Below are positions 8,835-44,553 of a DNA stretch of 64,000 nucleotides, one piece after another. Origin of the DNA: a virus; the IMG/VR virus record IMGVR_UViG_3300045988_062793. One strand, 5' to 3'. Every line of letters starts with the position of its first letter. Position 1 is the first letter of the stretch. The position numbers and the translations under genes are program-made. The notes below the pieces were generated by a model. That model was not told the DNA's origin. It did no database searches and worked only from the letters and a program-made list of their open reading frames with translations.

Positions 8835-9194
8835 ATGGATAAATATATTAATGGAAATCTAATAAAGAGGATACTAGTTTTTAAAACTAGAAAACATCCA
8901 GAATGGAAGCATAGAATAGCAGATACTAAATTCTTATTCTGGAAAAAACATATTGACTATTGGTATCTTCTAGACCCATGCTTTGGGACTTACTCTGAGA
9001 AAGGGATGCTCGAATCAATTAGTAAGAGAACGTCCTTCTACAAGGATGGAATAGTATACCAGAAGCCGCATATTATTCTAGAGTTCTCTGAGAGACATGA
9101 TGAGTCTATCTATTTTGATAGTGATGAGGAAATGGAAGGCTGGCTTGAGTCTTTCAGGCAAGAATTTGGAAAACCATTTATGTATATAGAATAA
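8835..9194 (+). CDS. Hypothetical protein (about 119 aa)
   Basis: ORF track 8811..9194, first ATG at 8835. Confidence 0.45.
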   Translation: MDKYINGNLIKRILVFKTRKHPEWKHRIADTKFLFWKKHIDYWYLLDPCFGTYSEKGMLESISKRTSFYKDGIVYQKPHIILEFSERHDESIYFDSDEEMEGWLESFRQEFGKPFMYIE

Positions 9195-9315
9195 TACCTT
9201 TATCCCAGTTTAGAGCTTAGCTCAAGTAGTGAAGAACAGTAGCTATTGGTTAAAACGAGGTGGAGTGCCAGACGAAAGACTGGAATTAACATAGTTTAAC
9301 TTTGAATCTCCGACT

Positions 9316-9657
9316 ATGCGGAGTATCATTATGGCAGAATTGATTTTCTTACCTAATGGAAAATGCGATTTGAAATTTCATGCTAACATCAAAAACTTTA
9401 AAAGAGTTGAGATTGTGAAGCATAAGAAGAACTTCTTCAGGGTCTATGTAGACCGCAACGATAGCGTTTATGACGTGAAACGGTGCGAAGTCATCACTTG
9501 GAAGACCATAGAGAGAGGGAAAAGAAAGGTGAATGTTCCTGACAAGGTTGACGAGGTACGTGATGTACATCTGTTTGACAAGACTAAGGGAAATCCGTTC
9601 AAGATTGCGGTTACTAAAATAATCGGCGAGATTGAGGCACAGGAATTACTATCTTAA
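9316..9657 (+). CDS. Hypothetical protein (113 aa)
   Basis: ORF track. Confidence 0.45.
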   Translation: MRSIIMAELIFLPNGKCDLKFHANIKNFKRVEIVKHKKNFFRVYVDRNDSVYDVKRCEVITWKTIERGKRKVNVPDKVDEVRDVHLFDKTKGNPFKIAVTKIIGEIEAQELLS

Positions 9658-10165: not shown

Positions 10166-10250
10166 ATCCGTGTGGGTGAATGGTTTAGCCATCAGTCTGC
10201 AAAACTGAAAAGAGAAATCTTTAATGAGGGTTCGAATCCCTCCACGGATT
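10166..10250 (+). tRNA. Class II tRNA (long variable arm, 3-bp D-stem, Ser-like architecture) carrying a Cys-type anticodon GCA
   Basis: Acceptor atccgtg/cacggat, anticodon stem tcagt/actga with loop ctgcaaa, roughly 18-nt variable arm, T-arm gaggg ttcgaat ccctc; 85 nt in total. Confidence 0.5.
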
Positions 10251-10270
10251 CTAATTTTAAATTTAAAAAT

Positions 10271-10906
10271 ATGGCATATATTTATTGCATTACAAATTTA
10301 ATTAATAGCAAGCGATACGTAGGAAAAACTACTACTTCTATAGAAGAGCGCTGGAAGGAACATTGTTATGACTTTTAGAAAGAAAGATGCAACAAAAGAC
10401 CTTTATATGATGCCATGAATAAGTATGGTGTTGAGAACTTTATGATAGAGGAATTGGAATATGTAGATAGTAACTCTGAATTATCTGAAAGAGAAATCTA
10501 TTGGATAAAAGAGCTAGGAACTTATGGTTCTAATGGGTACAATGCCTCTAAAGGAGGAGATGGCACTATTCTATACAATCATAGTGAAATTGTAGAATTA
10601 GCTAGATTGGGATATACTAGTTCTTAGATACAAGAAAAAATAGGGTGCTGTAAAGACACTATTTACAAAGTTTTGAAGGCAAATAATATAAAAATTAGAA
10701 AAAGTAACGCAAAGTTAATTGCTTAGTATGACTTAGCAGGTAATTTTATACAGGTATTCTTTGGTTCCAGAGAAGCTTAGGAATGGTTAATTAATAACGG
10801 AATTACTGACAATAAATCTGCATAGAGTCATATTATAGGATGCTGTAAGAATAAAACCAAATCATAGTATGGCTATATTTGGAAATATCTTCCAGAGCCT
10901 ATTTAA
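10271..10906 (+). CDS. GIY-YIG homing endonuclease gene (N-terminal GIY-YIG domain, C-terminal HTH / GxIWKY-type DNA-binding region); single frame interrupted by 6 in-frame TAG codons and ending in TAA
   Basis: MAYIYCITNLINSKRYVGKT...RWKEH and ...RPLYDAMNKYGVENF...YWIKELGT...GYN...GG are GIY-YIG signatures; C-terminal ELARLGYTSS[TAG]IQEKIGCCKDTIYKVLK is a classic HTH. TAGs sit at 10376, 10625, 10724, 10778, 10823 and 10865; no TAA or TGA in frame until 10904. The ORF track splits it into 10115..10378 and 10415..10627. Confidence 0.7.
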
Positions 10907-11977: not shown

Positions 11978-12050
11978 GGGCCGTTAGCTCAAATGGCTAG
12001 AGCGCTGGTTTTGCACACCGGAAGATAGGGTTCGAGTCCCTGCGTGTCCA
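11978..12050 (+). tRNA. tRNA-Ala (anticodon TGC) candidate with poorly paired acceptor stem (possibly nonfunctional)
   Basis: Canonical D-arm gctc aaatggcta gagc, anticodon stem ctggt/accgg with loop tttgcac, T-arm taggg ttcgagt ccctg; acceptor strands gggccgt and cgtgtcc pair at only 4 of 7 positions. Confidence 0.45.
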
Positions 12051-14431: not shown

Positions 14432-15106
14432 ATGACTAGATTGGAAAAGTATTTAGTAGCAACTGCTACTGAGATTATCGAAGCGGAAACAACTGTTTCT
14501 CGCTACTTTGTCATTGGAAACGTCAAAGTTAGAGTATCAGACCATTTAAGTAAAATGAGTGATGCAGACTTACAAGTGATTATTCCATTGAACGGAGGGA
14601 CTAAGTATATAGTTACTGTTAAAGATAGTCCTGGAAAATTTCTTGTGTGGAATGCAACTCAAATAAAAGACTTTATTCCTTCATTGCAGATTATTAAGGG
14701 CTTGAAGGAAGGAGTGCAACTTAAGCCAAAACCTAAAGACTCTGCAGTTCAGAAGATTCAGCTAGCATTAAATAATAGTAATACCGATGGAGGTTCGTTA
14801 ACGTTTGATGGTACTATTATTGAGTCTAGATTGAAAGAAAAGCAACTTACTTCCAAACAGCGGGAAGTTTTCAGGAGAACTAAATCTACTTGGGACATTT
14901 CTCAGATTGGAACATTACCCAGTATGATTAAAGTAGATTTGGGATTGTCAAATGGTTCTGTAAACGAAGATGTGCAGATATTTCTAACTTGTACATCTTT
15001 AACCTACAAAGAAATTCTGAACATTTATAAAATAATAGTTGTTGATAACCGTATGGTTCCAACTATTAAACTGTTGCAAGAAGCTTATAGCTTGATTGTG
15101 CAGTAG
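14432..15106 (+). CDS. Hypothetical protein (224 aa); the only well-supported gene in the window ending in TAG
   Basis: ORF track; stop TAG at 15104-15106, 3 nt before tRNA-Glu. Confidence 0.5.
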   Translation: MTRLEKYLVATATEIIEAETTVSRYFVIGNVKVRVSDHLSKMSDADLQVIIPLNGGTKYIVTVKDSPGKFLVWNATQIKDFIPSLQIIKGLKEGVQLKPKPKDSAVQKIQLALNNSNTDGGSLTFDGTIIESRLKEKQLTSKQREVFRRTKSTWDISQIGTLPSMIKVDLGLSNGSVNEDVQIFLTCTSLTYKEILNIYKIIVVDNRMVPTIKLLQEAYSLIVQ

Positions 15107-15109
15107 GAT

Positions 15110-15181
15110 AGCGCCATCATCTAAGGGTTAGGATTCAGGCTTTTCACGCCTGCCATACGGGTTCGAATCCCGTTGGCGTTA
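15110..15181 (+). tRNA. tRNA-Glu (anticodon TTC)
   Basis: Acceptor agcgcca/tggcgtt, anticodon stem caggc/gcctg with loop ttttcac, T-arm acggg ttcgaat cccgt. Confidence 0.7.
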
Positions 15182-39472: not shown

Positions 39473-39626
39473 TGATACTGGAGAAAACTTTATTTCTGGA
39501 GACGAAGAAGCACTAATATCCAAATTTCCTAGACAGACAGTATATAGGTGTGAGCTTCCAGCCGGAGCGTGTGTAAATACACAAGACTTATTGGACTTTA
39601 TAAATGAGCAACTCGTTATTGACTAG
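39432..39626 (+). CDS. Small hypothetical protein (64 aa)
   Basis: ORF track. Confidence 0.35.
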   Translation: MTNLKEMVFYVVINDTGENFISGDEEALISKFPRQTVYRCELPAGACVNTQDLLDFINEQLVID

Positions 39627-39676
39627 AGAAACCCTAGAGATGTAAAGTTAATGAAAAAATAAATAGAATAAACGGA

Positions 39677-40222
39677 ATGAAAAAGTAGACTAATACAAGT
39701 GTTACAGCTACATTTAAAAATGGAGAAAAGAAAACCTTCGAAACTATAGAAGAAGCCTCAGAAGTAACTGGCTTAGAGATAAACTCTATTAAAGCTAGGG
39801 CTAATAAACCTGGCTCTGGAGCTAAATCGAAAGATGGAATTACCTTTGAATGGGCAGATCCTGCAGTTAGAAGAAGTAAGCAAGCGAAGAAAAGTAAACA
39901 AAAAGGTTCTCAATATGAGTTAGAAATAATTCATAAATTGAGAGATGTTGGATATGAAGGATGTGTATCTAGTAGAAGCCAGAACAAACTGGCTGATGCT
40001 GACAAAATAGATATTGTTGATATGAACAATGAACTTCCAGTTAATATCCAAGCCAAGTTTACCCAAAATATGCCAAACTATTTTGACATTAGGGACGCTT
40101 GTAGTGATAAATCTAAACCGTTCTGTATATGTTGGAAGAAGGCAGGAAAGAACGGGGCACCTAGCGTGGGTCAAGTAGCTGTAATACCTATAGAATATTT
40201 TTATGAATTGCTTAAGAAATGA
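39677..40222 (+). CDS. HTH (homing-endonuclease-type DNA-binding motif) plus PD-(D/E)xK nuclease gene whose 4th codon is an in-frame TAG
   Basis: Frame reads MKK[TAG]TNTSVTATFKNGEKKTFETIEEASEVTGLEINSIKARANKPGSGAKSKDGITFEWAD (NUMOD/IENR1-like HTH), then ...DADKIDIVDMNNELPVNIQAKF (D...D...QxK). The ORF track has only the C-terminal part, 39938..40222. Confidence 0.5.
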
Positions 40223-42230: not shown

Positions 42231-42552
42231 AAAATTGTCAGCAATTTATAGCAAATACTTTACCTTAAATTACCTAAATAGCAATATGGGAGATAAACTA
42301 GCTTGTATTGCTCTCACTTGTTATATAACTAATGAGTTAAGGAAAAAAGGTCAAAAAGTAACTTGTTATGATGTTCTCCTAAAAGTAGGTAACGACTTTG
42401 GGGAGGTGGAAAAAAATACCTTCCTGAAGTCCCTAGGGGCCATTTGCGAGGATTTAATGTATGGGTGTAATACTTTCCTTGACTTTGGAATAAAGCCCAA
42501 GGATATGCCCAAACAACTCAAAATTTTGCTAGACAATTATGTACCATTTTAA
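42202..42552 (+). CDS. Hypothetical protein (116 aa)
   Basis: ORF track. Confidence 0.4.
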   Translation: MNDLQNISFEKLSAIYSKYFTLNYLNSNMGDKLACIALTCYITNELRKKGQKVTCYDVLLKVGNDFGEVEKNTFLKSLGAICEDLMYGCNTFLDFGIKPKDMPKQLKILLDNYVPF

Positions 42553-42566
42553 TGTTAAAAATTTTT

Positions 42567-43028
42567 ATGATATATCTATTAAGAAACAACAACTTTTTGA
42601 AGATAGGCTTCGCTAAAGATGTCTAGAGGAGAATGAAGTGCTATAATACCTGCGCCTTTGGATATCAATTGTTAGATGTAAGGGATGGAGATAAACAGGT
42701 AGAAAAGCTACTCCATAAGATGTTTAGAAAATACTAGGTAGCTAAGGAATGGTTTGAAGATAACAACTATATTATCTTACACTTTCATGATAGTGTAGAG
42801 AGACTAGTAGAATAGTCTCAAAATATTGCCAAGTAGAGAAAATACATCAGAGTCTGGACCTCAAGGGGCATATTCTATAAGGATTACGATTCCATATAGG
42901 AATGTTCATAGAGTTTAGGTTTTCCGATATAGGATATAAAGAATGCTTTAACTAATAAAAAGACAAAAGTCGGAAATTTTATTATTTAGCATAAGGTGTG
43001 TGACTAGGGTCAATTTAACACCCTTTAA
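42567..43028 (+). CDS. T5orf172/GIY-YIG-superfamily endonuclease-like gene interrupted by 9 in-frame TAG codons (the only stops in the frame before the terminal TAA)
   Basis: Translation MIYLLRNNNFLKIGFAKDV[*]RRMKCYNT...YQLLDVRDGDKQVEKLLHKMFRKY[*]VAKEWFEDNNYIILHFHDSVERLVE[*]SQNIAK[*]RKYIRVWTSRGIFYKDYDSI[*]ECS[*]SLGFPI[*]DIKNALTNKKTKVGNFII[*]HKVCD[*]GQFNTL; N-terminus fits the GIY/KIG...R motif. The region otherwise appears as a 620-nt noncoding gap. Confidence 0.55.
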
Positions 43029-43866: not shown

Positions 43867-44553
43867 ATGGATAAATGGAAACGGTACACAGGTGAAGAAA
43901 TCCTGTATAATGCTTTGGACGAGAATGGGGTAGTCAGTAATGAACCTATGTTAGAAGATGCAGTAAAACTAGGTATAAGCACATCCTCTAATGGGGAATG
44001 TATACTACTAAAGTTTTATTGGACAGATGGATTTGGATGGTACTTCAAAGATGGAAAAATAACCTTTATATTGCACGAATGCAAAGTAGGGGATTCTGTT
44101 GTGGGTAGGACTATGAGAGGATACAAAACTTGCCTAAAGAAAGCACTTCTTCAAGATATAGGTTATTACTTCAAAATAAAGAACTACCAATATACCAAGT
44201 TTAGTAAAAAATTAAAAGATTTGGCGGAGGAGTTTGGTTATACAGATATCAATAAATTCATTATTGACCACTTTGGGATGTTTTTGATAACAACTCCGAA
44301 GTTTGTATGTCATGCAACTATGACTGAAGATATTAAAAGATTAATTAATACCTTAGAAGATTCAATATCTAAAGCTACAAGTTCCCCAAGTGAGTATTGG
44401 GGAGATAAGACATCTAATATGAAGCAAATTATGCTGGATTTTGATGCAGATGACCTACCGTTTGAGATGATGCCAGACAGAGTAGATTTGGCAGACACTG
44501 GAGAGATACTTAATAGTATATTAAAAGAAGAAATAAATGGAATTGACGATTGA
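43867..44553 (+). CDS. Hypothetical protein (228 aa)
   Basis: ORF track. Confidence 0.45.
   Translation: MDKWKRYTGEEILYNALDENGVVSNEPMLEDAVKLGISTSSNGECILLKFYWTDGFGWYFKDGKITFILHECKVGDSVVGRTMRGYKTCLKKALLQDIGYYFKIKNYQYTKFSKKLKDLAEEFGYTDINKFIIDHFGMFLITTPKFVCHATMTEDIKRLINTLEDSISKATSSPSEYWGDKTSNMKQIMLDFDADDLPFEMMPDRVDLADTGEILNSILKEEINGIDD

Follow-up and report, generated by a model that had tools for sequence, protein, structure and literature searches.

Recoded gut phages have been described in which early genes follow the standard code and late genes are recoded (Borges et al., bioRxiv 10.1101/2021.08.26.457843). Borges et al. (10.1101/2021.08.26.457843) also found that a group I intron endonuclease, carried in an early gene of the TGA-recoded Agate phages, is preferentially recoded, and they proposed (10.1101/2021.08.26.457843) the same delay as we consider below, namely that production of the nuclease is delayed to the late phase of infection. 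For other gut phages, Peters et al. (PMC9523058) report that metaproteomics proves TAG to be translated as glutamine. Here we describe a nuclease gene interrupted by in-frame TAG codons in a 64,000-nt stretch of viral DNA (IMG/VR record IMGVR_UViG_3300045988_062793), hereafter the window. The type of recoding is the one already described by Borges et al., to which the present gene, a member of the T5orf172 family, adds another case.

The lineage of the window resembles the code-15 gut phages of Borges et al. and Peters et al. (PMC9523058) in its human gut origin, its large genome and the suppressor tRNA(CUA) encoded by relatives of the window. As in those phages, TAG is avoided as a terminator, the terminase and portal genes are rich in TAG, the replication genes are free of it, and TAG stands for CAA/CAG. 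The lineage differs in that the suppressor tRNA and the late genes are known here from relatives and lie outside the window. Like the intron endonuclease of the Agate phages, the gene in question encodes a homing-type endonuclease, is located in the early region and uses the reassigned stop codon. The Agate gene, however, is intron-borne and uses TGA (Trp), whereas the gene in the window is free-standing and intergenic, belongs to the T5orf172 family and uses TAG (Gln); besides, several unrelated nuclease families are recoded in the present lineage, with no statistical excess over the late genes.

Barth et al. (2023, PMC10448857) described T5orf172-family homing endonuclease genes in phages such as ICP1 and the T5-like ones. 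Like these, the gene in the window combines a terminal T5orf172 domain with a (here putative) DNA-binding part, is free-standing, lies near nucleotide-metabolism genes, and coincides with boundaries of flank identity, i.e., of exchange. Nevertheless, most members described in PMC10448857 possess CapR, DUF723 or DUF4397 zinc-finger DNA-binding domains, in contrast to the putative I-HmuI/NUMOD-like module found here, and they are written in the standard code, whereas the window protein, of only 153 aa, is TAG-coded.

The Seg proteins of T4 and I-TevI share with the window protein an N-terminal GIY-YIG-type fold and a C-terminal helix-turn-helix-like module (predicted in our case), albeit the family here is T5orf172 and not canonical GIY-YIG. 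The free-standing seg genes are also intergenic insertions that are polymorphic among related phages. T4 restricts the expression of such homing endonuclease genes by translational control. RNA hairpins or late promoters exert the control in those cases, whereas the control that we propose here would be exerted by the genetic code itself.

In the standard-code gene map of the window, the + strand is almost without gaps apart from a 622-nt hole between positions 42552 and 43175, which matches the gap of about 620 nt pointed out in an earlier note on this DNA. That note had also claimed that one frame reads from an ATG to a TAA through nine TAG codons, and we located all of them: the + strand frame starts with an ATG at 42567, ends with a TAA stop at 43026-43028, and contains neither TAA nor TGA between the two. 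The TAGs are codons 20, 57, 83, 90, 111, 115, 122, 141 and 147, and their first bases are at 42624, 42735, 42813, 42834, 42897, 42909, 42930, 42987 and 43005. The gene and the part of it spanned by the TAGs are as follows.

42567..43028, + strand: T5orf172-family (GIY-YIG superfamily) nuclease gene, 153 aa with TAG as Gln, from translation, Pfam and dN/dS
42624..43007, + strand: part of the gene from the first to the last of the nine TAGs, which occupy variable and mostly polar alignment positions

TAG accounts for nine of the 13 Gln-equivalent codons in the gene. Five proteins in public collections (P0001-P0005) are identical or nearly identical to the product, and other pipelines had already called TAG as Q in them. 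We conclude that the apparent gap holds a real gene, which stands under selection and was recently mobile. Gene callers set to the standard code leave such holes and break the late genes of these phages into pieces, and recognising code 15 recovers both the gene and the mobile-element content of the genome.

Could the frame be open by chance in a non-coding spacer? The absence of a standard ORF is the only point in favour of this idea. As TAA and TGA make up 5.5% of the trinucleotides within the gap, 153 codons free of both are expected with P of ~2e-4 per frame (analytic estimate), and a significant Pfam match, 738 homologs at E <= 1e-3 in an exhaustive HMMER search, and purifying selection speak against chance as well. 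We thus consider the probability of a chance frame to be negligible.

The search against Pfam with TAG translated as X yielded a match to T5orf172 (PF10544; GIY-YIG clan) with an E-value of 5.6e-9 and 36.9 bits, which became 40.4 bits with TAG translated as Q (curated cut-off of 20), as well as a match to MUG113 with 34.9 bits (cut-off of 22.3, TAG as X). The claim of a T5orf172/GIY-YIG-like gene is therefore borne out with the TAGs masked, as the scores lie above the curated cut-offs. In an alignment of 60 homologs, the invariant residues are Y3, K12, G14, R22, E46 and E61, corresponding to the Tyr of the first strand, the K-I-G of the second strand, an Arg and two Glu; the window protein keeps all of them, together with the near-invariant H50 and W62. 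In the same alignment, the columns that contain the nine TAGs are all variable and mostly polar. The protein can be divided into two parts.

42567..42791, + strand: N-terminal nuclease domain, about residues 1-75, which keeps the family-invariant residues
42834..43001, + strand: putative C-terminal DNA-binding module, about residues 90-145, from its resemblance to the NUMOD-like part of I-HmuI

A structure model of the 153-aa protein was confident, its domains matched GIY-YIG nucleases and I-HmuI, and the window protein is thus predicted to adopt the alpha/beta fold of the GIY-YIG nucleases. The product is a free-standing homing-endonuclease-type protein, consisting of an N-terminal T5orf172/GIY-YIG nuclease and a C-terminal, I-HmuI-like putative DNA-binding module.

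For comparisons between alleles, 55 relatives were retrieved from IMG/VR around the neighbouring exonuclease gene, mostly of 95-193 kb, the near-complete ones being of ~185-193 kb. At 5-14% DNA divergence from the window copy, alleles still have the frame intact, with TAG as the only 'stop'. The dN/dS values against three diverged alleles were 0.13, 0.09 and 0.13 (at dS of 0.50, 0.25 and 0.53, respectively), and the differences are mostly at third codon positions. The frame is thus under purifying selection. TAG and CAG replace each other between alleles at codons 44 and 57, in both directions, and single swaps of TAG with GAG (codon 115), TAT (codon 122) and AAG (codon 89) were also seen. A more distant relative, L090, whose genome is ~75% identical in DNA, possesses a 50%-identical homolog at the same intergenic site. 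The frame of this homolog is open with five TAGs at positions other than those in the window gene, and Gln and TAG are swapped between the two genes at codons 34 and 140. Homologs in related phages, which the earlier note had suggested comparing, therefore carry sense codons at TAG positions of the window gene and TAG at other positions.

The above comparison also bears on the possibility that the gene is a decaying homing endonuclease pseudogene, untranslated by now after a build-up of nonsense mutations. Degeneration after fixation is known for homing endonuclease genes, and nine codons of the frame are stops in the standard code. Nevertheless, the nine lesions are without exception TAG, never TAA or TGA, in a genome with a GC content of 36%; dN/dS is about 0.1; frameshifts are found neither in alleles diverged by 6-14% nor in the 50%-identical homolog of L090; the catalytic-type residues are intact; and a 99.8%-identical copy in a divergent genome indicates recent spread. 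A pseudogene is highly improbable on these grounds, and we regard both this and the chance frame as excluded by the diverged alleles, the L090 homolog and the publicly called proteins.

The meaning of TAG can be read from the late genes of the relatives. These genes lie further upstream than the suppressor tRNA genes of the relatives and are oriented divergently, and in L114 they contain 15 (large terminase), 32 (portal), and 6 and 3 (two smaller late genes) in-frame TAGs. The terminase, portal and two smaller late genes were aligned over 20-35 relatives, and we compared the codons in the TAG-containing columns. Among the 157 such columns, the alternative was CAA in 67 and CAG in 55, and any other codon was found in at most 10 (TGG, TAT and TAC in one each). 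As CAA is two substitutions away from TAG, this CAA/CAG pattern shows that TAG is synonymous with Gln.

The terminators of the ~105 genes in the window are TAA in 67, TGA in 36 and TAG in about two. In the two window genes ending in TAG, an in-frame TAA follows 5 and 11 codons on (at 15104-15124 and 39624-39662, respectively). Similarly, the gene at 13064-13462 of L092, which is found in relatives, ends with two consecutive TAGs, two further codons and TAA. The TAAs behind TAG look like back-up stops where termination at TAG becomes leaky. The 103 TAG-free proteins listed for the window include NrdD, family A DNA polymerase (PolA), ligase, RNase H, dUTPase and helicases, and the same TAG-free pattern continues over 10 kb beyond the downstream end of the window. 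In the Pfam search of these 103 proteins, 36 families were matched, and the 25 of them displayed all belong to replication, nucleotide metabolism or other ordinary phage functions. Sigma70_r2 (possibly a phage sigma factor), a crAss001_48-related protein, NAPRTase, two Band_7 proteins, and an RNA ligase with a HAD 'Swiss Army Knife' RNA-repair domain were also seen among the TAG-free proteins.

Judged from the sequences, the lineage is one of code 15 phages, which use TAG as Gln, with early/middle genes devoid of internal TAG and recoded late genes. In GenBank, proteins of Ackermannviridae-like and other large myoviruses are distantly related to those of the lineage, with identities of about 43%. 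The host presumably belongs to the Bacteroidota, as the spacers before the two start codons examined have no Shine-Dalgarno sequence and a crAss001_48-like protein is present.

ARAGORN detected 16 tRNA genes in the window, to which Rfam added two tRNA-like matches, and no tRNA with the anticodon CTA was found among these 16-18 tRNAs of the 64-kb window. The two additional elements and the tRNA-Gln of the phage are as follows.

4182..4254, + strand: phage tRNA-Gln(TTG), found by ARAGORN, the window tRNA closest to the - strand tRNA(CTA) of the relatives
5166-5242: tRNA-like element with anticodon UAU and without D arm, found by Rfam and missed by ARAGORN, just upstream of the HNH gene 5268-5864
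11978-12050: tRNA-like element with anticodon UGC and three mispaired acceptor positions, found by Rfam and missed by ARAGORN

Relatives possess a + strand tRNA(CTA) of 71 nt, located 6-9 kb before the start of the window, and often a second one of 73 nt on the - strand. At least one tRNA(CTA) is present in 60 of the 69 loci of relatives that cover the region upstream of the window. Contig 3300045988_065177 carries a tRNA(CTA) along with a 100%-identical copy of the T5orf172 insertion. As the suppressor tRNA lies outside the window, its presence in the genome of the window is an extrapolation from the sequences of relatives, and the genome presumably carries such a tRNA; the best of the retrieved IMG/VR contigs is about 97% identical to the window, and none is identical. 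A crude motif search of the window found no motifs of a release factor or GlnRS.

The - strand tRNA(CTA) is 71% identical to the tRNA-Gln(TTG) at 4182-4254 and shares the D arm, U1-A72 and A73 with it. No clear similarity to tRNA-Gln was seen in the + strand tRNA(CTA). The latter fact would suit a decoding of TAG as pyrrolysine, tyrosine, tryptophan, lysine or glutamate instead of glutamine, as would the label 'Pyl' given to the tRNA by ARAGORN and the one swap each between TAG and GAG, TAT or AAG among the alleles of the T5orf172 gene. Nevertheless, CAA and CAG together occur 122 times in the codon columns, against 10 times or fewer for any other codon (TGG once, TAT and TAC twice in total), the closest tRNA to the - strand suppressor is a phage tRNA-Gln, and metaproteomics, as reported in PMC9523058, found Gln at TAG in other gut phages. 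Any of these alternative amino acids is therefore very unlikely. Pyrrolysine in particular was rejected, since the label 'tRNA-Pyl' comes from the anticodon alone, and both the substitution pattern and the resemblance of the tRNA point to Gln.

We also noticed variation in the + strand suppressor tRNA. In 18 of the 69 loci (L061, L068, L074, L142 and 14 others), ~7 kb upstream of the window start, its anticodon is TTA and not CTA, and 14 of the 18 also retain a CTA tRNA. A tRNA with the anticodon TTA would read TAA as well as TAG, and TAA is the stop codon that these phages use most. The + strand suppressor tRNA of L078 and L070 has an altered anticodon loop.

The comparison of filled and empty alleles delimits the mobile insertion.

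42563..43013, + strand: mobile insertion of ~451 bp, from the junctions of filled and empty alleles

The edges of this insertion are uncertain by up to 3 nt because of a T run. Empty sites read TAA and TGTTAAAAAT, directly joined to TTTAACATCC, with the right side beginning TTTAAC, and filled sites have ~451 bp between the same words TGTTAAAAAT and TTTAACATCC. Three empty-site alleles were distinguished, including 9-bp variants and a 21-bp allele, GAGATTTTTAGTTAAGAGGAT. The insertion is essentially the ORF alone: the ATG is 14 nt past the upstream stop codon, and the T5orf172 gene runs on into the conserved right flank, which supplies its final five codons and stop codon. The gene lies between two early/middle genes, with nrdD starting 2.3 kb downstream.

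About 15 of the 55 related ~187-kb gut phage genomes carry the insertion. The remaining relatives mostly have 9, 10 or 21 bp at the site; in a few, the spacer is a different one or the site gave no clear reading. An unannotated fecal contig of 11 kb in GenBank, colinear with the window at ~91% identity, has 21 bp in the place of 461 bp in the window; a megablast search of GenBank phage sequences gave no match besides this one contig with the empty site. In L003, L010, L041, L042 and L047, the insertion is 99.6-100% identical, and the identities of the left and right flanks range over 74-100% and 81-99.7%, respectively. In L047 the insertion is 99.8% identical to that of the window, with flanks of 74% and 81%, and the site is empty in L049, the sister of L047. 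The precise presence/absence polymorphism and the spread independent of the flanks are typical of homing endonuclease genes of the free-standing type. The locus adds a case that is clear at the population level, as occupied and empty sites, alleles that have diverged and a recent transfer are all represented.

The T5orf172 gene is not the only TAG-bearing nuclease gene in the window. The earlier note had reported the same pattern 32 kb away, and we indeed found there a second gene with a Pfam match (GIY-YIG, E-value of 9.3e-13).

10271..10906, + strand: GIY-YIG endonuclease gene, 211 aa, with six in-frame TAGs (10376, 10625, 10724, 10778, 10823 and 10865)

TAG represents six of its eight Gln-equivalent codons. 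The gene is flanked by an 86-nt tRNA-Cys and a tRNA-Met. It is found at 96-100% identity in some relatives and is absent in others, and in yet other relatives it is replaced by copies with 70-82% identity over part of the gene, some of them at other sites. The tRNA-Cys(GCA) in question (10166-10251, 86 nt) has a long variable region, and several relatives have a 75-nt tRNA-Cys at this place.

A total of 17 TAGs in three genes had also been claimed. This count holds only if the third gene is taken as the TAA/TGA-delimited frame 39623-40222 with two TAGs, but only the one at 39686 (codon 4) is inside the likely third gene, 39677-40222. This gene, which is probably the third gene of the earlier note, combines a RusA-like resolvase part (PHROG 244, E-value of 4e-10) with an N-terminus that is NUMOD-like. 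Its ATGAAAAAGTAG, in which codon 4 is TAG, is conserved in 49 of the 55 relatives, and no other in-frame ATG lies ahead of the conserved part. Apart from codon 4 of the RusA-like gene, internal TAGs among the early/middle genes of the window are confined to the mobile nuclease genes.

For all relatives retrieved, we surveyed which ORFs of the early and tRNA regions contain TAG, a survey that included obvious read-through artefacts. The nucleases in it are T5orf172, two or three GIY-YIG variants, two PDDEXK_5, two HNH and one DUF723 zinc-finger. The TAG-bearing nuclease loci in relatives are as follows.

L015, 5540-6244: DUF723 zinc-finger gene, 8 TAGs
L068, 6799-7260: PDDEXK_5 gene, 3 TAGs
L064, 7828-8229: PDDEXK_5 gene, 4 TAGs
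L073, 19109-19645: HNH gene, 2 TAGs
L058, 6703-7089: HNH gene, 2 TAGs
L090, 15538-16446: LAGLIDADG gene adjoining nrdD, 1 TAG

Two further genes in the survey, of 133 aa and 396 aa, have no nuclease annotation and lie near the suppressor tRNAs of relatives. The 133-aa gene (L058, 2068-2469, - strand) adjoins the - strand suppressor tRNA, has 3-4 in-frame TAGs and homologs in 20 loci, and gave no match in Pfam. Two TAG-containing frames of the window were rejected as genes. The TAG-only frame 8866-9657, with eight TAGs, is a read-through artefact that joins two ordinary ORFs across a tRNA-like sequence, and the frame 2194-2838, with five TAGs, is due to chance, as it lies within the 657-aa gene 1659-3632 in another frame.

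Mobile nuclease genes in this lineage use the late dialect wherever they are located, and the recoding of nuclease genes is hinted to be general in the lineage. These findings broaden a single earlier remark, made on the TGA-recoded intron endonuclease of the Agate phages, by adding TAG, genes that are free-standing and several families of nucleases. Two stronger statements were rejected. Not every homing-type gene is recoded, as the HNH gene 5268-5864 contains no TAG, and nuclease genes are not recoded beyond the level of late genes (pooled TAG share of 0.51 versus 0.49; Fisher's test, p = 0.88). In L055, a large GIY-YIG gene contains no more than two TAGs.

What could the late dialect mean for a gene that sits in a TAG-free block? 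A 14-nt spacer leaves no room for a promoter of its own, and the T5orf172 gene thus probably shares the transcript of its upstream early/middle neighbours; a scan for promoters and terminators around the gene gave counts no higher than those in shuffled sequence, and nothing usable in the 14-nt spacer. Without suppression, translation would stop at codon 20 and release a peptide of 19 residues. The full-length nuclease would appear only after the suppressor tRNA becomes active, and its production would probably be confined to the later, suppression-competent phase of infection. The predicted protein may cut the empty site. As the early/middle genes contain no internal TAG apart from the nuclease genes and codon 4 of the RusA-like gene, translation of the T5orf172 nuclease probably depends on the suppressor tRNA. 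Taken together, we consider it very probable that the locus is a real, selected and mobile free-standing gene for a homing-type nuclease, which is translated with TAG as Gln and only once the suppressor tRNA is active. The TAGs may then act as a timing gate and not merely be tolerated.

Alternatively, the same gene and the same code are present, and the TAGs have no regulatory role: a selfish gene that acts late, or whose source was a late region or another recoded phage, would simply drift to the codon usage of late genes. Transitions from CAG to TAG are silent for a gene needed only when suppression is on, the swaps between TAG and CAG in the alleles run both ways, the TAG share of the nuclease genes is indistinguishable from that of the late genes, and it varies widely among nuclease genes, from 0 (HNH 5268-5864) to 1.0. 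On the other hand, the gene lies 14 nt behind an early/middle gene and is thus probably transcribed together with TAG-free neighbours, and the absence of internal TAG from ~100 neighbouring genes (except codon 4 of the RusA-like gene) indicates that TAG is selected against in this block. That TAG is tolerated there only in selfish nucleases is itself informative, and Borges et al. (10.1101/2021.08.26.457843) found a significant enrichment in the analogous case. The pooled shares and the wide range are compatible with an evolved gate and with passive drift alike; we regard drift as a serious possibility, albeit not the one that we favour.

If the gating of the T5orf172 gene is real, the locus would provide a simple system to test how the reassignment of a stop codon sets the timing of gene expression, and whether differences in the code limit the spread of selfish genes between phages. 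It is attractive to speculate further that the code is an evolved, general leash, by which selfish genes of at least five unrelated nuclease families (T5orf172, GIY-YIG, PDDEXK_5, HNH and DUF723), located in the standard-coded early and tRNA regions, are kept silent until the suppressor is active and their pool is confined to recoded phages. We find this generalization rather doubtful. If it is true, the genetic code would serve as a common control of, and a containment barrier for, homing endonucleases, beyond codon drift.

The vicinity of the insertion contains a second variable cassette, i.e., a gene for a 228-aa protein (43872-44536) located one gene downstream. In GenBank contig MT836281.1 (L001), ~588 bp of unrelated sequence takes the place of this gene.
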